Shown one piece after another: positions 27,712 through 52,360 of a DNA stretch of 64,000 nt. The notes beneath the pieces are model-generated. The model saw nothing but the letters and a program-made list of their open reading frames with translations, had not been told where the DNA came from and did no database searches. The translations under genes and the position numbers were made by a program. The number at the start of each line of letters is the position of its first letter. Position 1 is the stretch's first letter. The DNA is from Escherichia phage TH12: the sequence record MT446390.1. One strand, 5' to 3'.

Positions 27712-29525
27712 AAATTGAAAAAGAAATTGAAGGATTAATTTATAAAACTAATAAAGATCTTTTGAACGAGAATGCTAATAAAGATTCTCGTGTTTTTCCA
27801 ACTCAACGGGACCTTATGGCTGGTATTGTGTCTAAGCACATTGCCAAAAATATGGTCCCGTCTTTTATTATGAATGCGCATGAAAGCGGAATCATTCATA
27901 TGCATGATATTGATTATTCTCCTGCTCTTCCGTTTACTAATTGTTGTTTAGTCGATTTAAAGGGGATGCTTGAGAATGGATTTAAATTAGGCAATGCTCA
28001 AATTGAAACGCCTAAATCGATTGGTGTTGCTACTGCAATTATGGCACAAATTACTGCACAAGTTGCTTCCCATCAGTATGGCGGAACTACATTTGCGAAT
28101 GTCGATAAAGTTCTTTCTCCTTATGTTAAACGTACATACGCTAAACATGTTGAAGATGCAGAAAAATGGCAAATACCAGACATTCTGAATTATGCTCAAT
28201 CTAAAACAGAAAAAGACGTATACGATGCATTCCAAGCTTATGAATATGAGGTAAATACTCTTTTTAGTTCAAACGGTCAAACGCCTTTTGTAACAATTAC
28301 ATTTGGTACTGGAACTGATTGGACCGAACGAATGATTCAGAAAGCAATTCTGAAAAATCGGATTAAAGGTCTCGGTCGTGATGGAATAACTCCTATTTTT
28401 CCTAAACTTGTTATGTTTGTTGAAGAAGGTGTTAATCTTTATAAAGATGATCCGAACTATGATATTAAACAACTTGCGTTAGAATGTGCAAGCAAAAGAA
28501 TGTATCCTGACATTATTTCGGTTAAGAATAATAAAGCTATTACTGGTTCTTCAGTTCCAGTTTCTCCAATGGGTTGCCGTAGTTTCTTGAGTGTATGGAA
28601 AGATTCGACTGGTAATGAAATTCTTGATGGACGTAATAATCTCGGTGTTGTAACACTGAATCTTCCTCGCATCGCGTTAGATTCTTATATTGGAACACAG
28701 TTCAATGAACAGAAATTTGTTGAGCTATTTAATGAACGAATGGATCTGTGCTTTGAAGCCTTGATGTGTAGAATTAGTTCCTTAAAAGGAGTTAAAGCGA
28801 CTGTTGCTCCTATTCTTTACCAAGAAGGTGCATTCGGGGTTCGTCTTAAACCTGATGACGACATAATTGAGTTATTTAAAAACGGTAGAAGTTCAGTGTC
28901 TTTAGGATACATTGGTATTCACGAATTGAATATTCTTGTCGGACGTGATATTGGACAAGAAATTTTAACTAAAATGAATGCTCATCTTAAACAGTGGACC
29001 GAAAGAACTGGATTTGCTTTTAGCTTATATTCTACTCCTGCTGAAAACCTTTGTTATCGCTTCTGTAAACTTGATACAGAAAAATATGGAAGTGTAAAAG
29101 ATGTCACTGATAAAGGCTGGTACACTAACAGTTTCCATGTTTCAGTAGAAGAAAATATTACTCCGTTTGAAAAGATTTCTCGTGAAGCCCCATATCATTT
29201 CATTGCGACAGGCGGTCACATTTCTTATGTTGAACTTCCTGATATGAAAAATAACCTAAAAGGTCTTGAGGCTGTATGGGATTATGCTGCACAACATTTA
29301 GATTATTTTGGTGTTAATATGCCAGTAGATAAATGTTTTACATGTGGAAGTACTCATGAAATGACTCCTACTGAAAATGGATTTGTTTGTTCAGTTTGCG
29401 GAGAAACTGATCCTAAAAAGATGAACACTATAAGAAGGACCTGCGGTTATTTGGGAAATCCGAACGAGCGCGGATTTAATCTAGGCAAAAATAAAGAAAT
29501 CATGCATAGGGTTAAACACCAATGA
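27708..29525 (+). CDS. nrdD: anaerobic ribonucleotide reductase, uninterrupted
   Basis: 605 aa, C-terminal glycyl-radical motif RTCGYLG; matches T4 NrdD. Confidence 0.95.
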   Translation: MKIEKEIEGLIYKTNKDLLNENANKDSRVFPTQRDLMAGIVSKHIAKNMVPSFIMNAHESGIIHMHDIDYSPALPFTNCCLVDLKGMLENGFKLGNAQIETPKSIGVATAIMAQITAQVASHQYGGTTFANVDKVLSPYVKRTYAKHVEDAEKWQIPDILNYAQSKTEKDVYDAFQAYEYEVNTLFSSNGQTPFVTITFGTGTDWTERMIQKAILKNRIKGLGRDGITPIFPKLVMFVEEGVNLYKDDPNYDIKQLALECASKRMYPDIISVKNNKAITGSSVPVSPMGCRSFLSVWKDSTGNEILDGRNNLGVVTLNLPRIALDSYIGTQFNEQKFVELFNERMDLCFEALMCRISSLKGVKATVAPILYQEGAFGVRLKPDDDIIELFKNGRSSVSLGYIGIHELNILVGRDIGQEILTKMNAHLKQWTERTGFAFSLYSTPAENLCYRFCKLDTEKYGSVKDVTDKGWYTNSFHVSVEENITPFEKISREAPYHFIATGGHISYVELPDMKNNLKGLEAVWDYAAQHLDYFGVNMPVDKCFTCGSTHEMTPTENGFVCSVCGETDPKKMNTIRRTCGYLGNPNERGFNLGKNKEIMHRVKHQ

Positions 29526-29992
29526 ATTATGATAGATTTTATCCTTGCGATTTTGTGAATGGTCCTGGTTGTAGGGTCGTTCTTTTCGTTACGGGGTGTT
29601 TGCATAAATGCGAAGGGTGTTATAATAAATCAACATGGAATGCTAGAAATGGTATTCCATTCACTGGTGAAACACTAGAACAATTAATTGAATGTTTGAA
29701 TAATTATTATATAGAAGGATTAACTATAACCGGAGGAGACCCTCTCTATCCTGATAACCGAGATGTTATTCATTACATTGTTCAAACAGTAAAAAATCTT
29801 TATCCCAATAAAAGCATTTGGTTGTGGACAGGATATAAGTTTGAAGATATTAAACAGCTAGAAATGCTTAAATATGTTGATGTTATTATTGATGGGAAGT
29901 ATGAGAAAAATCTTCCGACCAAAAAGCTGTGGCGAGGATCAGATAATCAGCGACTTTGGTCAAATACCGATGGGGTGTGGAAACATGATTAA
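29522..29992 (+). CDS. nrdG: anaerobic RNR activating enzyme (radical SAM)
   Basis: CLHKCEGC CxxxCxxC motif; ATGA-coupled to nrdD. Confidence 0.9.
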   Translation: MNYDRFYPCDFVNGPGCRVVLFVTGCLHKCEGCYNKSTWNARNGIPFTGETLEQLIECLNNYYIEGLTITGGDPLYPDNRDVIHYIVQTVKNLYPNKSIWLWTGYKFEDIKQLEMLKYVDVIIDGKYEKNLPTKKLWRGSDNQRLWSNTDGVWKHD

Positions 29993-41785: not shown

Positions 41786-44497
41786 ATGAAAGAATTTTAC
41801 TTAACGGTTGAACAGATTGGTGATTCAATTTTTGAACGTTACATCGATTCTAATGGCCGTGAACGTACTCGTGAAGTAGAATATAAACCATCGTTGTTTG
41901 CACATTGTCCAGAAAGTCAGGCTACTAAATATTTCGATATCTACGGTAAACCTTGTACTCGTAAGTTGTTCGCTAATATGCGTGATGCCTCCCAATGGAT
42001 TAAACGCATGGAAGATATCGGACTTGAAGCACTTGGCATGGACGATTTCAAATTGGCGTATTTGTCTGACACTTATAACTATGAAATCAAATACGACCAT
42101 ACAAAAATTCGTGTGGCTAACTTCGACATCGAAGTAACATCTCCGGATGGGTTCCCTGAGCCGTCACAAGCAAAACATCCGATTGATGCTATCACCCATT
42201 ATGACTCAATTGACGACAGGTTCTACGTATTTGATCTATTGAATTCTCCGTATGGTAATGTAGAAGAATGGTCTATCGAAATTGCGGCTAAGCTTCAAGA
42301 ACAAGGCGGTGATGAAGTTCCATCTGAAATTATCGATAAAATCATTTATATGCCATTCGATAACGAAAAAGAATTGTTGATGGAATATCTCAACTTCTGG
42401 CAACAGAAAACTCCTGTCATTTTGACTGGATGGAACGTTGAGTCATTTGATATTCCATATGTGTATAACCGAATCAAGAATATTTTTGGCGAATCTACTG
42501 CGAAACGTTTATCACCACATCGTAAAACTCGTGTTAAAGTTATCGAAAACATGTATGGTTCTCGTGAAATCATTACATTGTTCGGTATCTCTGTTCTTGA
42601 TTACATTGACCTTTACAAAAAATTCTCTTTTACCAATCAACCGTCGTATTCTCTGGATTACATTTCAGAATTTGAATTGAACGTTGGTAAACTGAAATAT
42701 GACGGCCCTATTTCTAAGCTTCGTGAAAGCAATCACCAACGATATATAAGCTATAACATCATCGACGTGTATCGTGTATTGCAAATTGATGCTAAGCGCC
42801 AGTTCATCAACTTGAGTTTGGACATGGGTTATTATGCTAAGATACAGATTCAATCTGTGTTTAGCCCAATTAAAACATGGGATGCTATTATTTTTAATAG
42901 CCTTAAAGAGCAGAACAAGGTGATTCCACAAGGTCGTTCTCACCCGGTTCAACCTTATCCTGGCGCTTTTGTTAAGGAACCTATTCCAAATCGATACAAA
43001 TATGTAATGAGTTTCGACCTTACATCTCTGTATCCAAGTATTATTCGCCAAGTGAATATTAGCCCAGAAACAATAGCAGGAACGTTTAAAGTAGCTCCAT
43101 TGCATGATTATATTAACGCAATCGCTGAACGTCCTTCAGATGTGTACAGTTGCTCCCCTAACGGCATGATGTATTATAAAGACCGTGATGGTGTAGTTCC
43201 AACTGAAATCACTAAGGTCTTTAATCAACGTAAAGAACATAAAGGTTACATGCTTGCAGCTCAACGTAATGGTGAAATAATTAAAGAGGCATTGCATAAT
43301 CCTAATCTTTCTGTTGACGAACCATTAGATGTTGATTATCGTTTCGACTTCACTGATGAGATTAAAGAAAAGATTAAAAAGTTGTCTGCTAAATCTCTTA
43401 ATGAAATGTTGTTTAGAGCTCAACGTACTGAAGTTGCAGGTATGACTGCACAGATTAACCGTAAATTGCTCATCAACTCACTTTATGGTGCACTTGGCAA
43501 CGTTTGGTTCCGTTATTATGATTTGCGTAATGCTACTGCAATCACAACATTTGGTCAAATGGCTTTACAATGGATTGAACGTAAAGTTAATGAATATCTG
43601 AACGAAGTTTGTGGTACAGAAGGTGAAGCTTTCGTTCTTTATGGTGATACAGACTCTATTTACGTATCTGCAGATAAAATTATTGATAAGGTTGGTGAAT
43701 CTAAATTCCGTGATACCAACCATTGGGTAGACTTCTTAGATAAGTTCGCACGTGAACGTATGGAACCAGCTATTGATAAAGGTTTCCGTGAAATGTGTGA
43801 ATACATGAACAATAAACAACACTTAATGTTCATGGACCGAGAAGCTATCGCTGGTCCTCCGCTTGGTTCTAAAGGTATTGGCGGATTCTGGACTGGTAAG
43901 AAACGTTATGCATTAAACGTGTGGGATATGGAAGGAACCAGATACGCTGAGCCTAAACTCAAAATCATGGGTCTCGAAACACAGAAATCTTCGACCCCTA
44001 AAGCAGTACAGAAAGCTCTTAAAGAATGTATTCGCCGTATGCTTCAAGAAGGTGAAGAATCATTACAAGAATATTTTAAAGAGTTTGAAAAAGAATTCCG
44101 TCAATTGAATTATATTAGCATCGCGTCGGTATCTTCTGCGAATAACATTGCTAAATATGACGTTGGTGGATTCCCTGGTCCTAAATGTCCGTTCCATATT
44201 CGTGGAATTCTGACATATAACCGAGCTATCAAAGGTAATATTGATGCTCCACAAGTTGTAGAAGGCGAAAAGGTATACGTTCTGCCTTTACGTGATGGAA
44301 ACCCGTTCGGTGATAAATGTATCGCATGGCCTTCTGGTACTGAAATCACAGATTTAATTAAAGACGACGTACTTCATTGGATGGACTACACTGTTCTCCT
44401 TGAGAAGACATTTATTAAACCACTTGAAGGATTCACATCAGCAGCGAAACTCGATTACGAGAAGAAAGCATCTCTGTTCGATATGTTCGATTTTTGA
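41786..44497 (+). CDS. 43: DNA polymerase gp43 (family B), RB69-type
   Basis: 903 aa; exo motif FDIEV, pol motifs SLYPS and YGDTDS; matches recalled RB69 gp43. Confidence 0.98.
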   Translation: MKEFYLTVEQIGDSIFERYIDSNGRERTREVEYKPSLFAHCPESQATKYFDIYGKPCTRKLFANMRDASQWIKRMEDIGLEALGMDDFKLAYLSDTYNYEIKYDHTKIRVANFDIEVTSPDGFPEPSQAKHPIDAITHYDSIDDRFYVFDLLNSPYGNVEEWSIEIAAKLQEQGGDEVPSEIIDKIIYMPFDNEKELLMEYLNFWQQKTPVILTGWNVESFDIPYVYNRIKNIFGESTAKRLSPHRKTRVKVIENMYGSREIITLFGISVLDYIDLYKKFSFTNQPSYSLDYISEFELNVGKLKYDGPISKLRESNHQRYISYNIIDVYRVLQIDAKRQFINLSLDMGYYAKIQIQSVFSPIKTWDAIIFNSLKEQNKVIPQGRSHPVQPYPGAFVKEPIPNRYKYVMSFDLTSLYPSIIRQVNISPETIAGTFKVAPLHDYINAIAERPSDVYSCSPNGMMYYKDRDGVVPTEITKVFNQRKEHKGYMLAAQRNGEIIKEALHNPNLSVDEPLDVDYRFDFTDEIKEKIKKLSAKSLNEMLFRAQRTEVAGMTAQINRKLLINSLYGALGNVWFRYYDLRNATAITTFGQMALQWIERKVNEYLNEVCGTEGEAFVLYGDTDSIYVSADKIIDKVGESKFRDTNHWVDFLDKFARERMEPAIDKGFREMCEYMNNKQHLMFMDREAIAGPPLGSKGIGGFWTGKKRYALNVWDMEGTRYAEPKLKIMGLETQKSSTPKAVQKALKECIRRMLQEGEESLQEYFKEFEKEFRQLNYISIASVSSANNIAKYDVGGFPGPKCPFHIRGILTYNRAIKGNIDAPQVVEGEKVYVLPLRDGNPFGDKCIAWPSGTEITDLIKDDVLHWMDYTVLLEKTFIKPLEGFTSAAKLDYEKKASLFDMFDF

Positions 44498-44537: not shown

Positions 44538-45173
44538 ATGAAAACTACACCAATCACTATCGCTATTGACGCAATCGTAAAACAAGCTTCATCTCTTGCC
44601 ACTATGGCTAAAGTAATTAGTCAAAACTCTGCCCGATATAATGCTATTCTTGAAACTCTTCGTCGCCCTGGACTGAGTAATTATGAAAGCCGAGTAATTA
44701 TTACAGGTGTTGGTAAGAACGCTAATATCGCAACTAAAGCTTCCGAGACTTTTGCTTCACTAGGTATTCCTAGCATGTATTTGAACACCGGGCATTATTC
44801 TCATGGCGACGCAGGGTTTATTGCACCTAATGATGTATTAGTTCACATCAGTCGTTCTGGTAAGACTGAAGAAATGATAGGTGTTGCTAAACATCTTCGT
44901 ATGATTCGTCCTCAGGTTAAACAGATTCTGTTACATTGTAACCCTGACATTCCGCAAGAATACGAAGCTCTTTTTGATTATACGTTCTGTACAGGCATCG
45001 CGGTAGAGGTTGATGAGAATTCTCTGGCTCCGACCATGTCCACTACATTGTTGTTAGCGCTTATCGATACGTTTGCTATCAACCTTTCGTCTGAACGTGG
45101 ATTTACCTCTAATGACTTCCTTAAGTTCCACCCTGGTGGTGCACTAGGTGCCATGTTACGAGGCGAACAATGA
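44538..45173 (+). CDS. SIS-domain sugar-phosphate isomerase (arabinose-5-phosphate isomerase-like)
   Basis: SIS motifs ITGVGKN and SRSGKTEE. Confidence 0.7.
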   Translation: MKTTPITIAIDAIVKQASSLATMAKVISQNSARYNAILETLRRPGLSNYESRVIITGVGKNANIATKASETFASLGIPSMYLNTGHYSHGDAGFIAPNDVLVHISRSGKTEEMIGVAKHLRMIRPQVKQILLHCNPDIPQEYEALFDYTFCTGIAVEVDENSLAPTMSTTLLLALIDTFAINLSSERGFTSNDFLKFHPGGALGAMLRGEQ

Positions 45174-45313
45174 AAGCAATAACAATAGGACTTTTACTAT
45201 TGATGCTTGTCATGACTATCTACTGGAGCTTAACGGCTCCAGTAATGATTCCGACTCTTATAATCGGATGGATTATGATTGGACTACAAACAAAGTATGA
45301 ATGCTTTAACTAG
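45170..45313 (+). CDS. small membrane protein (47 aa), absent from track
   Basis: ATGA-coupled to isomerase gene; hydrophobic throughout. Confidence 0.35.
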   Translation: MKAITIGLLLLMLVMTIYWSLTAPVMIPTLIIGWIMIGLQTKYECFN

Positions 45314-45326
45314 AATAGTGTACAAT
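45299..45326 (+). promoter_or_regulatory. candidate MotA-dependent middle promoter
   Basis: gaaTGCTTTA, 12 nt, TACAAT, about 30 nt upstream of ATG 45355. Confidence 0.35.
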
Positions 45327-45354
45327 ACACCTACTTACCAATGAGGACCACAAC

Positions 45355-47040
45355 ATGAAAAAAGCTGTTATTCTTGGTGCTGGACTGGCAACTCGTTTGT
45401 ATCCAATAACGCACCATATTCCTAAGGTGCTTGTTAACTATAAACAAGACACTATTCTGAGCAATTTGTATACAATTTATTCTGACCTTGGTGCAGATGA
45501 AATTATTGTAGTAGTTCATTCAAAATTTGTTGAAACTGTTCGAGCTTATTGTGAGCAAGAAGGGTTCAATGTGACTATTCGTACAGTTGATGAAGCGTAT
45601 GGTTCTGCTTATGCTCTTGCTAAATTATACAAAGATTTAGATGGCCATAATGTAATTGTTAACTGGTGTGATATTATTCCTGATTTTGGTTCATGGTCTT
45701 GGAATGTTAACGCAATCTATGTTAAGGGTGACGAATGTCGATATAATTTCGACGGTGAAAATATCACTAGCGTAGGTTCAACAGGTGGTAATGTTGTAGG
45801 AATTTATCAGTTCAAAGACTGGGAATTCTATATGGGTTCTACTGATGAGGAAATTCATGAATACTGCAAAGGACGTGATTTCGTAGAATTCCTTTACGGC
45901 AGCGCATTCAATAAATCAGAGCTTATGAATCTAATTGATTTAGGTGATATGCCTAAACTTGAAAAAGCTCATGAAGTTCGTGAACTTAATCGTAGTTTTA
46001 ATGCAGTTGAAATTGGTGAAGAAACTGTAACTAAATTCGCATTAACCGAACAGGGCCGAGCTCTTCAGAAAGATGAGATTTCATGGTATCTTAAAGTGAA
46101 ATCAGATTCAGTTCCTCAGTTAGTTTCTGTTAATGAAAATAACTTTGAAATGGAACGCATTAAAGGTAAGCCGGCATTTGAATATATTAAATCCAAATCG
46201 AGTCTTGCTCGTCCACAAATTGTTGATGCAATTTTAGATGCACTGAAATTCAGCACAGACACTTATTTTGTAAGTCCTGAAACTGTTCGTCGTGATTTCA
46301 CTAAAGAATTCTATACGAAAGTTATTGATCGTTGTGAAAGCATTCAACCATTGATTGATTCATTTGGTAAAATCACACATGTGAACTACACTAAGATTGG
46401 ACGTCTGAAGCCAATGCTGAAACAAGCTTTAGAACACCTTATTCGTTATCATAACCGTTCTCAGGGACAGTACTCTGTTATTCATGGTGACCCGAACTTC
46501 AGTAATACTATGATTACTGATAACGGCGAAGTCAAGTTTATCGACCCTCGTGGATATTTTGGCGAAACCAAGATTTACGGGCCAAAATTGTACGATGAAG
46601 CTAAAGTGCTTTATGCTGTTTCAGGTTATGATGAATTCAATGCTAATCCGACCTGGGGACAGTTTACTATTGATGAAACAACTTGTAATGTGACTATTAA
46701 CATCAATCCATTAATTTACAAATATGGAAAGATGAGTTCGTTTAACGAGTATCATCATTTGGCGGTGGCAATTATCTGGATTGCATTAGGTGGTTATTTC
46801 AAGAATAATCCACTTAAAGCGGTAGCCGCATATTATAAAGGTATGGAACTTCTGACTAAGCAATTACGCAACATGGGCCGTGTACTTCAAGACGGCTCTA
46901 TTAGTTATGACGTAGCAGAACCTGTAACGGCTACTCTGATTACAAAAAATCCTGGTAAATGGGTACTAACTGATAAAGAAACTGGTGTTTCCTATCGTCC
47001 AATCGGTGGCGATATCACTCATCAATGGGAACGAATCTAA
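45355..47040 (+). CDS. bifunctional sugar-1-phosphate nucleotidyltransferase / anomeric sugar kinase fusion (MurU-AmgK-like)
   Basis: N-terminus GAGLATRLYP; C-terminus HGDPNFSNTMI ... FIDPRGYFG. Confidence 0.65.
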   Translation: MKKAVILGAGLATRLYPITHHIPKVLVNYKQDTILSNLYTIYSDLGADEIIVVVHSKFVETVRAYCEQEGFNVTIRTVDEAYGSAYALAKLYKDLDGHNVIVNWCDIIPDFGSWSWNVNAIYVKGDECRYNFDGENITSVGSTGGNVVGIYQFKDWEFYMGSTDEEIHEYCKGRDFVEFLYGSAFNKSELMNLIDLGDMPKLEKAHEVRELNRSFNAVEIGEETVTKFALTEQGRALQKDEISWYLKVKSDSVPQLVSVNENNFEMERIKGKPAFEYIKSKSSLARPQIVDAILDALKFSTDTYFVSPETVRRDFTKEFYTKVIDRCESIQPLIDSFGKITHVNYTKIGRLKPMLKQALEHLIRYHNRSQGQYSVIHGDPNFSNTMITDNGEVKFIDPRGYFGETKIYGPKLYDEAKVLYAVSGYDEFNANPTWGQFTIDETTCNVTININPLIYKYGKMSSFNEYHHLAVAIIWIALGGYFKNNPLKAVAAYYKGMELLTKQLRNMGRVLQDGSISYDVAEPVTATLITKNPGKWVLTDKETGVSYRPIGGDITHQWERI

Positions 47041-47426
47041 TGCACCGTGTAGAAAACATGCTTAATCTTTGTTTTGATGTCGATGATTGTATAACAGAGT
47101 GGAATAACAATCGTGATTACGTGAACTTCAAACCAGACGTCGAAATGGTGTCTGCCATTAATGCCCTGTATGATGCAGGGCATACCATAACGCTTTACAC
47201 TGCTCGTGGTATGAAGTCAGTAGGTCCTGGTCGTATAGCAATTGACATTCTCCCAAGTCTGATTCAGAACTTGGCAAACATTGGCTTGAAGTACCATAAT
47301 TTGCTAACACATAAACCAGTATATGATTGGATTATCGACGACAAAGCTATGCGTCCTGACGAATTCAAAGCTCTTATGAATAAAGGCGAATTCGAAACAT
47401 TTAAATCGTATAAACCGAATCTATAA
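47040..47426 (+). CDS. HAD-superfamily phosphatase-like protein
   Basis: HAD motif I FDVDDCIT near N-terminus; start may be 47025 or 47058. Confidence 0.55.
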   Translation: MHRVENMLNLCFDVDDCITEWNNNRDYVNFKPDVEMVSAINALYDAGHTITLYTARGMKSVGPGRIAIDILPSLIQNLANIGLKYHNLLTHKPVYDWIIDDKAMRPDEFKALMNKGEFETFKSYKPNL

Positions 47427-47484: not shown

Positions 47485-48645
47485 ATGAATACTTTTAAAA
47501 TCGGAACGAATTTTGATTTAGCTCTTCTTGATAAAATCGTAGAGCTCAATAAAACCTATCCTAATAGCTTGATAAACGAAGTATATGGCTCTACAAGAGA
47601 AATGGCTTTTGTAGCAGCCAGACCTGATTTTAGGCTTCCTGACGTTGACAAAAAGATGTTAGAAGACTACGTTAAACGTTGTAACGAATTAGGTATTTGC
47701 TTTAACTATACACTCAACACGATAAATCCTGGTTCAAAAAGAGAACTAGTTGAGTGGAAGAAGAAAGCTATTCAGGATTATGTTCAGTATCTTTGGTCAA
47801 TAGGCGTATGGCGTATTACTATCGCTAACCCTGTTGTTATGGAAATTGTTCGTGAAGTCAATAAAGATATTGAGATTGAAGTTTCAACAATTCTACATGT
47901 CGATGCGGTAACTCAAATCAAATACTTACATGACCAATATAACATCAAAAAGGTCTGTTGCGGAATTCATAAGAACCGTTCAGTTTCTTTCCTGAAGCGT
48001 GCAGCAGAGTTTTGCAATAAGAACAATATAATATTTGAAGTTCTTGTAAATGAGTTCTGTTCTAATGCTGGTAAAGGGTATACAACACATTGTAGTTATC
48101 GTGACTCTTGCTATATTTTCCATAGTACTGATGTTACAGCTGATGATGCTAAATCCTTAAATGGATATCCAATGCAACACTGCATTAAAGCTCGTGATAC
48201 AGACCCATTTAACTGGTTGAGAACTCGTTTTGTTCGTCCTCAAGATTTGAAACTTTATAATGATATTGGTATCACTCAATTCAAAGTTTCAGGACGTACA
48301 GGTAGCACAGACTACATTTTGAAAGTTCTTGAAGCATACGCTTCTGAAAAGTTTGAAGGTAATTTGTTAGAACTGTGGAAGCCTTTAGAGACTATTTTCA
48401 CTCTTGAAAATGAGACTGAGTTTTCACATACAGTAAATATTGAAACCTCTTTGTTAGATGGCTTTTTAGAAAAAAGGTGGTTCAGACATCCAGATTTTGA
48501 TTGTGCTAATGAAATCTGTGGGTCAACGTGTACATATTGTGAAAGGTATTATAAACGTCAATTATCTAAAAACGGGTTAGCAGAAAACTCCATATCTATT
48601 ATTGATATAACTAACTCTGATGACGCTTTGAGGTACCCGGAATGA
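47485..48645 (+). CDS. Cys-rich putative Fe-S enzyme (386 aa); weak peptidase-U32-like features
   Basis: YTLNT motif, C-terminal CxxxCxxC; family call is tentative. Confidence 0.35.
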   Translation: MNTFKIGTNFDLALLDKIVELNKTYPNSLINEVYGSTREMAFVAARPDFRLPDVDKKMLEDYVKRCNELGICFNYTLNTINPGSKRELVEWKKKAIQDYVQYLWSIGVWRITIANPVVMEIVREVNKDIEIEVSTILHVDAVTQIKYLHDQYNIKKVCCGIHKNRSVSFLKRAAEFCNKNNIIFEVLVNEFCSNAGKGYTTHCSYRDSCYIFHSTDVTADDAKSLNGYPMQHCIKARDTDPFNWLRTRFVRPQDLKLYNDIGITQFKVSGRTGSTDYILKVLEAYASEKFEGNLLELWKPLETIFTLENETEFSHTVNIETSLLDGFLEKRWFRHPDFDCANEICGSTCTYCERYYKRQLSKNGLAENSISIIDITNSDDALRYPE

Positions 48646-48881
48646 TTTCTAGAAAAAGTTTTAATTATAAACTTAACGAAGAGATTTTGACTATGAAACT
48701 GAACACTAACGAACAAATTCTTAAAAAGGCCCTTATGGGCCTGTTTGAAACCAAAGCGGCTAAAGTGATTAAAGAACCTGTTCAATTGGAATACTACACT
48801 GATGCATTCCTTCATAGTGTTCTTGGAAGTATAGATTCTGAAGCTTTACGTTATATCAACATTGTCAAGAAATTCAAATAA
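48642..48881 (+). CDS. hypothetical protein (79 aa)
   Basis: ATGA overlap. Confidence 0.45.
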   Translation: MISRKSFNYKLNEEILTMKLNTNEQILKKALMGLFETKAAKVIKEPVQLEYYTDAFLHSVLGSIDSEALRYINIVKKFK

Positions 48882-48923: not shown

Positions 48924-49640
48924 ATGGGAAAACATAACACAATGAAATATATCAAAGCCGCAGATTTTCAAACCGCATTTAAAGCAGTCAATCGTGAAAT
49001 TTTAGAAAACCCCGAATTCGTAACTGATTCTCGTATTGGACGTTGTAATGAAATTGGGTCTATGACAGTAGTTGTTGACACTCCATCATCATTCAAAATG
49101 ACCGACCCACGTATTAACCGCATCTCTTATGAATATGCCGAAGACTTCTGGAAGTTTATGATTTCTGGTGGTACCAACGCAGAAGAAGCGTTTAAGGCAT
49201 ATCCTAATGTCGCTAAATTTATTTCTAAACCAAAATCAGATGTTTTGCCGGCGAACTTCAACACTTTCTATGGTCCTCGCATTGCGGCCCAATTACCAAC
49301 TCTTCTAAAAGAACTTAAAGAAAAACCTAACTCTCGAAGAGTTGTGTTCCAAATTCTAGAAAGTTCTGATCAGGCTTTGCTTGATTCGGACGAAACACTT
49401 GAATATCCATGTACTGACTCAGTAACTTATTATATTCGTGATGGTAAGCTTTATACCCACTGTCATATGCGTTCTCAGAACTGTGCTGTTGTTATGCAGT
49501 TGGATTTTTATCTCCAAGGAAAATTACTTCATTATATCGCTAACGAATGTGGTGTAGAAGTTGGTGATTATACTCATACCATGGTAAGTGCCCATGTGTT
49601 TGAACGTGATTTTGATTATGTTAAAGGATTCCTTGACTAA
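48924..49640 (+). CDS. 42: thymidylate-synthase-fold pyrimidine hydroxymethylase (dCMP hydroxymethylase, gp42 position), divergent
   Basis: NSRR, YPCTD, MRSQN..D motifs; position between 43 and uvsX. Confidence 0.6.
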   Translation: MGKHNTMKYIKAADFQTAFKAVNREILENPEFVTDSRIGRCNEIGSMTVVVDTPSSFKMTDPRINRISYEYAEDFWKFMISGGTNAEEAFKAYPNVAKFISKPKSDVLPANFNTFYGPRIAAQLPTLLKELKEKPNSRRVVFQILESSDQALLDSDETLEYPCTDSVTYYIRDGKLYTHCHMRSQNCAVVMQLDFYLQGKLLHYIANECGVEVGDYTHTMVSAHVFERDFDYVKGFLD

Positions 49641-50539
49641 TGGCTATTTTCCGCGTACCAATCTTGAGTATGCGGTCTTATGAAACTGGACAGTATGCTA
49701 TCCTTAAGGATGGCAACTTCCAACTTCATTTGCACCGTGCTAATCCGGGTGATGTGATTACATATCCACGTAATGCATCTGATATTAAAGAATGCGAACG
49801 TCTTTTCCCAGAATTTAAGTTTGTTCCATTATGGTATAAAGATAACGCGTATAACACTCGTAAATATTTCTGGACTGAAAATGAATTTGTGGTTGATTCA
49901 TTAATTGATTATTATGATTGTGATTTTCTAATCACAGATATCACTGGTTATGGCGGCGCTTTTGATGTGGAATTCAATTTCAATATCACTGCAGACCCTA
50001 ATAAACCACGTTTTTATATTGATGAATTCTTAAAAACCGACATGTTGTCTGTTAATCGTTCACTTCAAACTACTGTGTTGAATGAACGTCAAAAAGGAGT
50101 GCTGGTTAACGCAGGTGCAGATGGTAATAAGATTATCGTAACGCAGAAAGTTATACGTCCTTCCATCATGCAGCGTCTTGTAGGTGATTTGGCTCCTATT
50201 CATCTAGATGGTATTTTTCATCCATTTCGAATTAGTGACCCATGTTATCGTTTTGAACAAGTGGTTGAATGTGCAATTCAATTAGGTCAACCGCTTTATA
50301 TAACCGATCCAAATAATAGCTTCGACAGAAATAAGTATCCTGAAGAAGCGCTGATTCGAATTTTTAAACCAACTAAAACTGAGTACTATCAAATTCTTAA
50401 AGGACGTCCGAAAATTCAATATTTCGAAAATCCTGAAGAAGTATTCCATCCAGGTCTTGGTGAGTTCATCTACTTTAATGCTTTAATTTCTTCGCCGTAT
50501 AATATACCTAAATACGAAGATGTCGTAATCGAGGAATAA
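49640..50539 (+). CDS. hypothetical protein (299 aa) at the T4 beta-gt position; candidate DNA glycosyltransferase
   Basis: Position only; no resemblance to T4 beta-gt. Confidence 0.35.
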   Translation: MAIFRVPILSMRSYETGQYAILKDGNFQLHLHRANPGDVITYPRNASDIKECERLFPEFKFVPLWYKDNAYNTRKYFWTENEFVVDSLIDYYDCDFLITDITGYGGAFDVEFNFNITADPNKPRFYIDEFLKTDMLSVNRSLQTTVLNERQKGVLVNAGADGNKIIVTQKVIRPSIMQRLVGDLAPIHLDGIFHPFRISDPCYRFEQVVECAIQLGQPLYITDPNNSFDRNKYPEEALIRIFKPTKTEYYQILKGRPKIQYFENPEEVFHPGLGEFIYFNALISSPYNIPKYEDVVIEE

Positions 50540-50540
50540 A

Positions 50541-51089
50541 ATGGCTAAAATTATTTTAGTAGACGGCCCAGATAATGCTGGTAAAACAACTTTCATTAAT
50601 GACATAATGGAAATTAGTGAAAGATATGTAAAGATTGATTTCCCTAAACGAACAGTTGATGGACGTTTCGATGTTAAGTCTCGAAATGAAGTTGGTTGTT
50701 TCGAAACGATGTTGAATTATTTAGACCCTACTAAGATTTATCTGTTAGACCGTGGATATATTAGTAACTGGGTTTATGGACGTATTCGACAAGATGCGGA
50801 CTCGGTTCTTGACGTTTATGAACAGGACTATGTTCGTCTTTGCCAAAACCATGATGTGTTCACAATTATTTTAACACGTAACGAAATGACTGAAAGTTTT
50901 GAAGACGACCTTATTACTTTGTCTTCATTCGGTTTTAATACAGTCGTTTCACATTTTGAAGAGTTTGCAATTCATAACAAAATCCAAACATATCAATTAC
51001 TTAATCATGATGGTGCTAACAAAGTTATAGGATTTAATGCAAGCGAACGTAATTGTTTGATTACAGAAATCATCAAATGGGCTCGTTAA
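50541..51089 (+). CDS. P-loop kinase-like protein (182 aa)
   Basis: Walker A DGPDNAGKTT at N-terminus. Confidence 0.5.
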   Translation: MAKIILVDGPDNAGKTTFINDIMEISERYVKIDFPKRTVDGRFDVKSRNEVGCFETMLNYLDPTKIYLLDRGYISNWVYGRIRQDADSVLDVYEQDYVRLCQNHDVFTIILTRNEMTESFEDDLITLSSFGFNTVVSHFEEFAIHNKIQTYQLLNHDGANKVIGFNASERNCLITEIIKWAR

Positions 51090-51187: not shown

Positions 51188-52360
51188 ATGTCTGATTTAA
51201 AATCTCGTCTGATTAAAGCTTCTACTTCTAAAATGACTGCGGACTTGACTAAGTCTAAGCTGTTTAATAATCGTGATGAAGTCCCTACTCGTATTCCGAT
51301 GTTGAATATCGCACTAGGTGGTGCTCTGAATGCAGGATTGCAATCAGGCTTGACTATTTTTGCTGCACCTTCTAAACACTTTAAAACGCTGTTTGGACTA
51401 ACTATGGTTGCAGCGTATATGAAGAAATATAAAGATGCAATCTGTTTGTTTTATGACTCAGAATTTGGTGCTTCAGAATCTTATTTTCGTTCAATGGGTG
51501 TTGATTTAGACCGTGTAGTTCATACTCCGATTCAATCTGTCGAACAACTTAAAGTTGATATGACTAATCAGCTTGACGCGATTGAACGCGGTGATAAAGT
51601 TATTATCTTTATCGATTCAATCGGTAATACTGCATCTAAGAAAGAAACCGAAGATGCATTGAATGAGAAAGTCGTAGGTGATATGTCTCGTGCTAAGGCA
51701 CTTAAATCTCTGTTCCGTATTGTGACTCCTTATCTGACTATTAAAGATATTCCATGTGTTGCAATCAACCATACAGCAATGGAAATCGGCGGATTGTATC
51801 CTAAAGAGATTATGGGCGGTGGTACAGGTATTCTTTATTCTGCCAACACGGTATTTTTTATCTCTAAACGTCAGGTTAAAGAAGGTACAGAATTGACCGG
51901 TTATGACTTCACGTTGAAAGCGGAAAAATCTCGTACAGTTAAAGAGAAATCTACTTTCCCGATCACGGTTAATTTTGATGGCGGTATTGACCCATTCAGT
52001 GGCTTGTTAGAAATGGCAACTGAAATTGGTTTTGTAGTTAAGCCTAAAGCCGGGTGGTATGCTCGTGAATTCCTTGACGAAGAAACAGGCGAAATGATTC
52101 GTGAAGAGAAATCATGGCGTGCTAAAGCTACTGATTGTGTAGAATTCTGGGGACCTTTGTTTAAACATAAGCCTTTCCGAGATGCAATTGAAACTAAATA
52201 TAAACTAGGTGCTATCTCTTCTATTAAAGAAGTTGATGACGCTGTTAACGACCTTATTAATTGCAAAGCAACAACTAAAGTTCCGGTTAAAGCTTCTGAT
52301 GCTCCGTCTGCAGCAGATATAGAAAACGACCTTGACGAAATGGAAGATTTCGATGAATAA
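51188..52360 (+). CDS. uvsX: RecA-like recombinase UvsX
   Basis: MSDLKSRLIKASTSK ... matches T4 UvsX (390 aa). Confidence 0.95.
   Translation: MSDLKSRLIKASTSKMTADLTKSKLFNNRDEVPTRIPMLNIALGGALNAGLQSGLTIFAAPSKHFKTLFGLTMVAAYMKKYKDAICLFYDSEFGASESYFRSMGVDLDRVVHTPIQSVEQLKVDMTNQLDAIERGDKVIIFIDSIGNTASKKETEDALNEKVVGDMSRAKALKSLFRIVTPYLTIKDIPCVAINHTAMEIGGLYPKEIMGGGTGILYSANTVFFISKRQVKEGTELTGYDFTLKAEKSRTVKEKSTFPITVNFDGGIDPFSGLLEMATEIGFVVKPKAGWYAREFLDEETGEMIREEKSWRAKATDCVEFWGPLFKHKPFRDAIETKYKLGAISSIKEVDDAVNDLINCKATTKVPVKASDAPSAADIENDLDEMEDFDE

Follow-up and report, generated by a model that had tools for sequence, protein, structure and literature searches.

The window analysed here is a 64,000-nucleotide (nt) stretch of Escherichia phage TH12 (MT446390.1), and the gene under study occupies positions 45355-47040 of its + strand, where a sequence-only reading had placed a single-polypeptide fusion of a sugar-1-phosphate nucleotidyltransferase and a protein-kinase-like anomeric sugar kinase. 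One open reading frame (ORF) of 561 amino acids (aa), running from ATG to TAA, was found at exactly these coordinates, which confirmed the fusion. The three motifs on which that reading relied were located at aa 8-17 (GAGLATRLYP; 45376-45405), aa 377-384 (HGDPNFSN; 46483-46506) and aa 395-403 (FIDPRGYFG; 46537-46563), and a fused ORF bearing them is far beyond chance. The gene is surrounded by a T4-type replication module, in which a series of + strand genes comes after a 903-aa family-B DNA polymerase (41786-44497), and the G+C content was 35-39% across the region.

A nucleotide search with the 1686-nt gene retrieved 176 phage records, 150 of which displayed 95-99% identity and belonged nearly all to Escherichia/Shigella Mosigvirus; the TH12 window is itself of Mosigvirus type. 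NHEP29 was the top match (99.1%), while Bas47 (AlbertHofmann) and RB69 displayed 98.4% and 98.2% identity, respectively. The Bas47 match, bas47_0151, is annotated as 'putative enzyme involved in UDP-arabinose biosynthesis'. Near-identical genes carry diverse GenBank labels ('hypothetical protein', 'bifunctional protein GlmU', 'NTP transferase' and, in one case, 'dCMP deaminase'). At the protein level, 323 homologues were found at E<=1e-3 (best E=0, at 88-100% coverage), and query coverage among the top 120 was 70-100%, mostly at least 88%.

The RefSeq record of RB69 still contains frameshifted ORFs, the region being split there into ORF053c (221 aa) and ORF052c. Alignment of the TH12 gene to RB69 28094-29780 displayed 29 mismatches and one indel in 1686 nt, the latter being a surplus C in the RB69 sequence (gene position 655). 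Once this base was removed, the RB69 product ORF053c+ORF052c (gp52:53) had the same length of 561 aa, 557 of them identical, with V59A, S139N, Q233H and I454V as the four substitutions. The TH12 gene, which also falls in the same 90%-identity cluster as RB69ORF053c, is thus the ortholog of RB69 gp52:53. The region had been re-sequenced by Thomas et al. 2018, who found the RB69 error, expressed a single product of ~64 kDa and 561 aa ('ORF53_52c') and proposed it as a candidate for UDP-arabinose biosynthesis (PMC6024577). The family phrog_21938 (342 positions), which matches aa 211-517, was probably derived from such split ORF calls.

Conservation was assessed on an alignment of 41 diverse homologues with identities down to 29%, in which the expected catalytic residues of both halves were invariant; functions were assigned to conserved residues by their position in the predicted secondary structure and not by superposition. 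The full-length AlphaFold2 model built on this alignment reached a mean predicted local distance difference test (pLDDT) of 92.9 and a predicted template modelling score (pTM) of 0.89. In the N-terminal half, Pfam PF00483 (NTP_transferase) matched aa 3-99 only, at 3.7e-9 and 37.0 bits against a cut-off of 21.2 bits. The G-x-G-x-(T)-R-L-x-P-x-T loop is present as LGAGLATRLYPIT (aa 7-19), followed by PK24, and aligns to the LicC sequence AAGLGTRLRPLT...PK. Invariant residues of this half were G10, R14, K24, W104, D106, D195, G197, D198 and K201. The first three correspond to the nucleotide-binding loop and the lysine of sugar-1-phosphate nucleotidyltransferases; D106, ending predicted strand 99-104, and D195 and D198, following strand 192-195, are putative Mg ligands on the basis of position only.

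When the full-length model was compared with the Protein Data Bank (PDB) by Foldseek, the top 50 matches were all sugar-1-phosphate nucleotidyltransferases (E ~1e-8, probability 1.0). They included RmlA, MurU (4y7u, E 2.7e-8), HddC (5xhw), LicC (1jyk), GalU and GDP-mannose pyrophosphorylases, with target-normalised TM scores of 0.5-0.68 to RmlA, MurU, HddC, LicC and GalU. Searching PDB sequences with the alignment profile gave HddC, a heptose-1-phosphate guanylyltransferase, as first match (4.4e-13) and LicC as second (1.3e-11); LicC was also the best match of the N-terminal half as a single sequence (2.6e-5). By predicted fold and residues, the N-terminal half is a sugar-1-phosphate nucleotidyltransferase with predicted catalytic activity, as had been proposed from the GAGLATRLYP motif.

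The same domain was once viewed as GT-A-like, in which case the protein would be a glycosyltransferase placing a pentose on cytosine. This view was suggested by an old CDD comment on RB69 ORF053c ('glycosyltransferase family A', GT-A superfamily; PMC6024577), and the Thanatos ortholog TH1_060 (54% identical), which is essential for propagation of that phage, was kept as a glycosyltransferase candidate by the authors of PMC12838424. However, LGAGLATRLYPIT together with K24 is a P-loop-like nucleotidyltransferase motif and not a GT-A DxD site, and the top 50 structural matches were all pyrophosphorylases. TH1_060 moreover displayed no transfer to DNA, dCMP or dCTP (PMC12838424), and the cluster has arabinosyltransferases of its own, of the GT-B type (PMC13326640). 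A glycosyltransferase function is therefore highly improbable and was rejected on account of the motif, the folds and the negative transfer assays.

The C-terminal half displayed the residues expected of a protein-kinase-like enzyme. The strand-3 lysine and helix-C glutamate were recognised by position as K227 (predicted strand 224-229) and E241 (predicted helix 232-247); the Brenner motif H-x-D-x4-N of the catalytic loop was found as H377-G-D379-PNFS-N384, and the downstream metal-binding aspartate as I-D397-PRG. K227, E241, G378, D379, N384 and D397-P-R-G400 were, among others, invariant, while H377 was conserved in at least 90% of the homologues. As the N-terminal domain masked this half in the top 50 Foldseek matches of the full-length model, aa 205-561 were modelled separately (pLDDT 92.8). 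The model displayed a bilobal kinase fold, with APH(2'')-IIa (3ham, E 8.5e-8) as top match, followed by other APHs, choline/ethanolamine kinases, macrolide kinases and LicA.

Sequence comparison was less telling for this half. The best sub-threshold Pfam scores were 18.9 bits for Seadorna_VP7, 18.3 for Fructosamin_kin, 17.6 for EcKL and 15.3 for APH, and the sub-threshold matches to protein-kinase-like families (Fructosamin_kin, EcKL, APH, RIO1) fell on aa ~350-410; some homologues did match PF01636. The alignment profile found no kinase among PDB sequences. On its predicted structure, the half belongs, as a divergent member, to the APH/choline-kinase fold superfamily, outside the curated Pfam families. 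The kinase assignment drawn from HGDPNFSNTMI and FIDPRGYFG thus held, and structure prediction of each half, which had been suggested as a check, gave confident models; together with the profile results, the Foldseek matches confirmed both fold claims.

The gene is embedded in a cluster between gene 43 and uvsX (Table 1), with a SIS isomerase upstream and, downstream, a HAD phosphatase, a ThyA-like 5-hydroxy-dCMP synthase and a glycosyltransferase. Gene order was conserved in NHEP29, RB69 and Bas47 and, with rearrangements, in EcS1, Thanatos and Ac42. As described by Lee et al. 2026 (Nucleic Acids Research), RB69 DNA carries beta-D-Araf-(1-3)-alpha-D-Araf (Araf, arabinofuranose) on 5-hydroxycytosine and not on hydroxymethylcytosine, and the ThyA homologue gp48 was experimentally shown to make 5-hydroxy-dCMP (PMC13326640). 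Structure searches in the same work described the N-terminal domain of gp52:53 as MurU-like and the C-terminal one as APH/choline-kinase-like (PMC13326640); the top fold matches reported here are the same and were obtained independently. As far as He et al. 2026 (Nature Chemical Biology) is cited in PMC13326640, the phage HY126 protein AfhE is a kinase for D-arabinose-5-phosphate as well as a UDP-D-arabinose pyrophosphorylase, and AfhF is a phosphatase. The TH12 gene would be the counterpart of AfhE, a relation taken from that statement. A PDB sequence search found no solved AfhE-like structure, the profile giving only nucleotidyltransferases and a noise-level match to ULK1.

A choline kinase fold beside a LicC-like transferase also recalls LicA and LicC of S. 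pneumoniae, which share the fold pair and the reaction order (kinase, then nucleotidyltransferase) but are separate proteins, act on a non-sugar substrate and use CTP. An activation of phosphocholine or phosphoethanolamine of this kind, unrelated to DNA modification, is nevertheless hardly credible for the phage protein. In every phage examined the gene is fixed between the arabinose-5-phosphate isomerase and the sugar phosphatase of the 5-hydroxycytosine arabinosylation cluster, remote homologues carry SIS and HAD domains in the same chain, and the phage DNA carries arabinose (PMC6024577, PMC13326640). The cluster context and these fusions led to rejection of the choline reading.

The gene very likely encodes a bifunctional enzyme for the synthesis of UDP-D-arabinofuranose (UDP-Araf), the donor for arabinosylation of 5-hydroxycytosine in phage DNA, and substrates and step order in the TH12 ortholog are presumably those of its characterised relatives. 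In the proposed route, the upstream SIS isomerase would convert host ribulose-5-phosphate into D-arabinose-5-phosphate (Ara5P), after which the C-terminal APH-fold kinase would use ATP to phosphorylate the anomeric C1 hydroxyl, giving Araf-1,5-bisphosphate. The downstream HAD phosphatase would then take off the 5-phosphate, and the N-terminal nucleotidyltransferase would convert the resulting Araf-1-phosphate and UTP into UDP-Araf and pyrophosphate. UDP-Araf would finally be consumed by arabinosyltransferases, whose genes lie both in the neighbourhood and in other parts of the genome. The role in pentose activation put forward in the sequence-only reading was supported by the synteny of the arabinose cluster, by orthology to RB69 and by the two RB69 studies (PMC6024577, PMC13326640). 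Published work on RB69, HY126 and related phages already covers the gene, the fusion, the assignment of both domains and the UDP-arabinose role, and the finding therefore adds no new biology.

Several observations weigh against this assignment. The kinase half remained below every Pfam gathering threshold and was recognised by structure only; purified TH1_060 gave no nucleotide sugar from xylose-1-phosphate, a result uninformative for arabinose (PMC12838424). Of the transferase relatives nearest in sequence, LicC, a CTP:phosphocholine cytidylyltransferase, takes CTP and HddC takes GTP, and UTP specificity is therefore not readable from sequence. Finally, Table 1 of PMC13326640 still gives a phosphatase-first order, with the kinase acting on free arabinose.

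The last point corresponds to an AmgK-like order, in which the HAD phosphatase would free D-arabinose from Ara5P, the kinase would act on the free sugar and the transferase would activate Araf-1-phosphate. This order is unlikely. The text of PMC13326640, where it cites in-vitro work on HY126 AfhE and AfhF, gives the sequence Ara5P, Araf-1,5-bisphosphate, Araf-1-phosphate. Free arabinose is mostly pyranose, and a furanose locked by its 5-phosphate would be the more sensible kinase substrate; the invariant basic residues R213, R326, R399, K417 and K488 of the kinase half would likewise suit an anionic substrate. The top profile match of the transferase half, HddC, also comes from a heptose pathway of the bisphosphate type.

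The CTP and GTP relatives, and the fact that no base-specifying residue could be assigned, would in turn fit a transferase half making CDP-, GDP- or dTDP-arabinose, or a nucleotide derivative of another pentose. This is still less probable than the alternative order, as the UTP/dTTP enzymes MurU, GalU and RmlA were equally good structural matches and the transferases gp76 and gp77 of phage DLP3 use UDP-Araf in vitro (PMC13326640). The description of AfhE as a UDP-D-arabinose pyrophosphorylase, as relayed in PMC13326640, points in the same direction.

With UDP-Araf as product, the enzyme provides the sugar donor from which arabinosyl-5-hydroxycytosine is made, a hypermodification that confers restriction-enzyme resistance in Mosigvirus and relatives and alters sensitivity to other defence systems. 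Its two steps form a compact route to a rare nucleotide sugar, which could serve glyco-engineering. The practical value of the finding lies in annotation: most of the ~150 near-identical GenBank genes still bear the labels 'hypothetical protein', 'GlmU' or 'NTP transferase', and the neighbouring phosphatase that of 'phosphoheptose isomerase'.

Known systems displayed partial likeness to the phage protein. AmgK is an anomeric kinase of the APH fold and, together with MurU, serves the salvage of N-acetylmuramic acid and N-acetylglucosamine in Pseudomonas. The resemblance to this pair, proposed from the sequence alone, stood at the fold level, both folds being shared, and failed at the family level: the NCBIfam MurU models NF045761 and NF045697 scored 23.4 and 17.5 bits against equivalog cut-offs of 250 and 370, and the AmgK model gave no match at E<=0.01. 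AmgK and MurU are moreover two separate proteins of a recycling pathway whose substrate is a free amino sugar, whereas the phage pathway would start de novo from ribulose-5-phosphate and is not a salvage route. Like LicA/LicC, the AmgK/MurU pair acts on a non-phosphorylated substrate.

ADP- and GDP-heptose synthesis proceeds through GmhA, then HldE or HddA, then GmhB, and finally HldE or HddC. These routes follow the same logic as the one proposed here, with a SIS isomerase, an anomeric sugar-phosphate kinase yielding a 1,n-bisphosphate, a HAD phosphatase and a nucleotidyltransferase. In HldE, too, a single chain contains both kinase and transferase, though of different folds, its kinase being of the ribokinase fold and its transferase of the cytidylyltransferase fold; HddA is a GHMP kinase, and the substrates are heptoses, not a pentose. 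No ribokinase (PfkB), PF01467 cytidylyltransferase-like or GHMP domain was detected in the phage protein with Pfam and NCBIfam. The likeness to the heptose enzymes is analogous and not homologous, the HddC-type transferase excepted. As the kinase substrate of AfhE is Ara5P, as far as reported in PMC13326640, heptose logic would be a closer parallel than AmgK/MurU salvage. Methylthioribose kinase MtnK was a further system compared; it is ~16% identical, acts in methionine salvage and lacks a fused transferase.

Domain hidden Markov models built from the alignment were used to classify 251 collected homologues, of which 208 displayed the fused nucleotidyltransferase-kinase arrangement in one form or another. 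Among these 208, 75 carried an extra C-terminal stretch of ~57 aa (all close phage relatives), 33 had at least 150 additional N-terminal residues and six ended in a cupin domain (~780-790 aa). A further 38 of the 251 were kinase only, many of them fragments. Whether phage homologues are split or fused, a question raised from the sequence alone, was settled for the phage type: all 75 were fused, the RB69 split being the one-base sequencing error described above. Split forms exist in distant systems and not in the phage lineage. P0202 and P0237 are genuine stand-alone kinases of 308-312 aa with a neighbouring transferase of different fold; stand-alone kinase-half homologues of this size were seen at L007 1845-2783, L008 3631-4557 and L009 1797-2723. 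Their neighbours comprise a cupin (MannoseP_isomer)-CTP_transf_like fusion and an epimerase-HAD fusion, and hence the nucleotidyltransferase has been replaced by one of a different fold while the four-step logic was kept. The 312-aa P0130, an apparent stand-alone kinase, was discarded as uninformative, its start lying 8 nt from the contig end.

Pfam resolved the 33 N-terminally extended proteins into four domains (HAD-SIS-nucleotidyltransferase-kinase; ~900-1000 aa). Such chains constitute Rosetta-stone evidence that the three sugar-branch genes of the phage form one functional unit. P0084, P0092, P0137 and ~30 others carry the whole branch from ribulose-5-phosphate to an NDP-sugar in one chain. 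P0084 (L005 6001-8781) is encoded on a 103-kb contig, next to genes for MutS-HNH, RNA polymerase Rpb2 and Autophagy_act_C, and the contig looks, from its gene content, like that of a giant virus; P0092 comes from a eukaryotic transcriptome set. A Butyrivibrio nucleotidyltransferase-kinase-SIS fusion was already recorded in 2018 (PMC6024577).

The extension of the phage-type proteins (aa 505-561) was confined to these 75 homologues. Model confidence for it was moderate to good, with pLDDT 66-84 as part of the full-length protein and 86-91 when the C-terminal part was modelled alone, and a Pfam search with it gave no match. The extension could serve as a docking module for the isomerase or the separate HAD phosphatase, channelling the bisphosphate intermediate instead of releasing it. 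We tentatively suggest, as a possibility that is more doubtful than not, that the nucleotidyltransferase-kinase core is the heart of a widespread and largely unannotated route from ribulose-5-phosphate to NDP-D-arabinofuranose, represented by cellular four-domain proteins, the giant-virus-like contig and the eukaryotic transcriptome, to which phages would have added a C-terminal docking module. Butyrivibrio fusion aside, neither the four-domain route nor the docking module appears in Thomas et al. 2018 or Lee et al. 2026.

In T4 middle promoters, a MotA box, (a/t)(a/t)(a/t)TGCTTtA, precedes a -10 element of the form TAnnnT by ~12 bp. A candidate of this type, already spotted in the sequence-only reading, ends 28 nt upstream of the fusion gene ATG and lies within the last codons of the preceding 47-aa ORF. 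The pattern TGCTTNA-N11-13-TANNNT was over-represented in the window (16 observed against 3.4 expected; 100 shuffles never gave as many as 16), and the coding strand carried 11 of these occurrences. EcS1, with a protein of 72% identity, has the arrangement at the corresponding place, while Thanatos and Ac42 displayed different promoter-like sequences there. No sigma-70-type -35/-10 pair was found on the + strand in 45174-45354. Judging from the sequence, a MotA-dependent middle promoter probably drives transcription of the fusion gene, along with that of the replication genes. The GG of the Shine-Dalgarno sequence was invariant in the upstream alignment of four phages. The gene itself contains another MotA-box/-10-like match (46607-46632), labelled 'T4 middle promoter' in the record of phage SA35RD; as this site falls on the codons for the near-invariant protein motif KVLYAVSGYD, it may reflect mere coding constraint.

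Table 1. Features of the fusion gene and its neighbourhood in the TH12 window (all positions refer to the window).
Feature	Position	Strand	Evidence or details
SIS-domain arabinose-5-phosphate isomerase, KdsD/GutQ-like without CBS domains, RB69 gp55 ortholog	44538-45173	+	Pfam SIS 9.6e-10; PMC13326640
47-aa strongly hydrophobic ORF, RB69 ORF054c counterpart	45170-45313	+	phrog_3610 2.2e-26
Candidate MotA-dependent (T4-type middle) promoter	45302-45326	+	TGCTTTA (45302-45308), 12 nt, TACAAT (45321-45326)
Shine-Dalgarno GAGG	45343-45346	+	8 nt before ATG
Bifunctional nucleotidyltransferase-kinase fusion gene	45355-47040	+	ATG-to-TAA ORF, 561 aa
Predicted sugar-1-phosphate nucleotidyltransferase domain, aa 1-210	45355-45984	+	Pfam PF00483, invariant residues, Foldseek, profile search
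Predicted APH/choline-kinase-fold (protein-kinase-like) sugar kinase domain, aa 215-500	45997-46854	+	K227, E241, H377-G-D379-x4-N384, D397-P-R-G
~57-aa C-terminal extension, aa 505-561	46867-47037	+	conserved core TKxPxKW-L-D-ET
Small HAD-type phosphatase, RB69 gp51 ortholog	47025 or 47040 to 47426	+	motif I FDVDD; NCBIfam TIGR01689 capsule biosynthesis phosphatase 4.3e-13; PMC13326640
Peptidase_U32-family protein, RB69 gp50	47485-48645	+	Pfam 7.3e-11; phrog_5757; weak NCBIfam UbiU 8.9e-4
79-aa ORF	48642-48881	+	ORF call
Thymidylate-synthase homologue, RB69 gp48 ortholog	48924-49640	+	Pfam Thymidylat_synt 1.9e-15; RB69p048 position
299-aa counterpart of RB69 gp46:47, predicted first DNA arabinosyltransferase	49640-50539	+	phrog_3891 4.2e-155; synteny in RB69, Bas47, EcS1, Thanatos; PMC13326640
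182-aa nucleotide (thymidylate-like) kinase, RB69 gp45 counterpart	50541-51089	+	'thymidylate kinase' at syntenic position in NHEP29, Bas47, RB69
390-aa ORF at uvsX position	51188-52360	+	RecA-like recombination protein in Bas47

Among the neighbouring genes, the isomerase further matched NCBIfam KpsF/GutQ (8.5e-32) and KdsD (3.4e-30) as well as phrog_5670 (2.1e-116). Its stop codon is overlapped by the ATG of the 47-aa ORF (ATGA), of which the EcS1 counterpart matches Pfam Phage_T4_Y02C. The phosphatase gene, which would be the counterpart of HY126 AfhF as far as PMC13326640 describes it, may start at ATG 47025, with a 16-nt overlap with the fusion gene, or at ATG 47040, with a 1-nt overlap (TAATG) as in RB69p051. 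As either start overlaps the fusion gene, translational coupling is implied. This phosphatase is widely mislabelled 'phosphoheptose isomerase' (PHROG 1238 and many records).

Lee et al. 2026 termed the Peptidase_U32-family protein RB69 gp50 a 'sugar or heterocycle reductase', with U32, prephenate and chorismate unmentioned (PMC13326640). A PDB sequence search with the TH12 protein gave no match. In EcS1 (L001 8089-9605) and Thanatos (L002 10428-11818) the U32 gene is directly followed by a type II chorismate mutase gene (CM_2 5.3e-12 and 2e-8, respectively). The 79-aa ORF at the corresponding position in TH12 was considered as a diverged chorismate mutase and rejected, having neither a Pfam match nor BLASTP similarity to these counterparts. 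The U32 proteins RlhA, TrhP and UbiU/UbiV are prephenate-dependent, O2-independent hydroxylases, and those of the UbiU/UbiV type bind iron-sulfur (Fe-S) clusters. By analogy, the pairing of U32 protein and chorismate mutase could yield 5-hydroxycytosine anaerobically, in addition to the O2/flavin-dependent ThyA homologue. Near its C-terminus (48560-48640), the TH12 U32 protein displayed a cysteine cluster, DFDCANEICGSTCTYCERYY (C-x4-C-x3-C-x2-C), and further cysteines at FCSNAGKGYTTHCSYRDSC, which suggests Fe-S binding as in UbiU/UbiV-type proteins.

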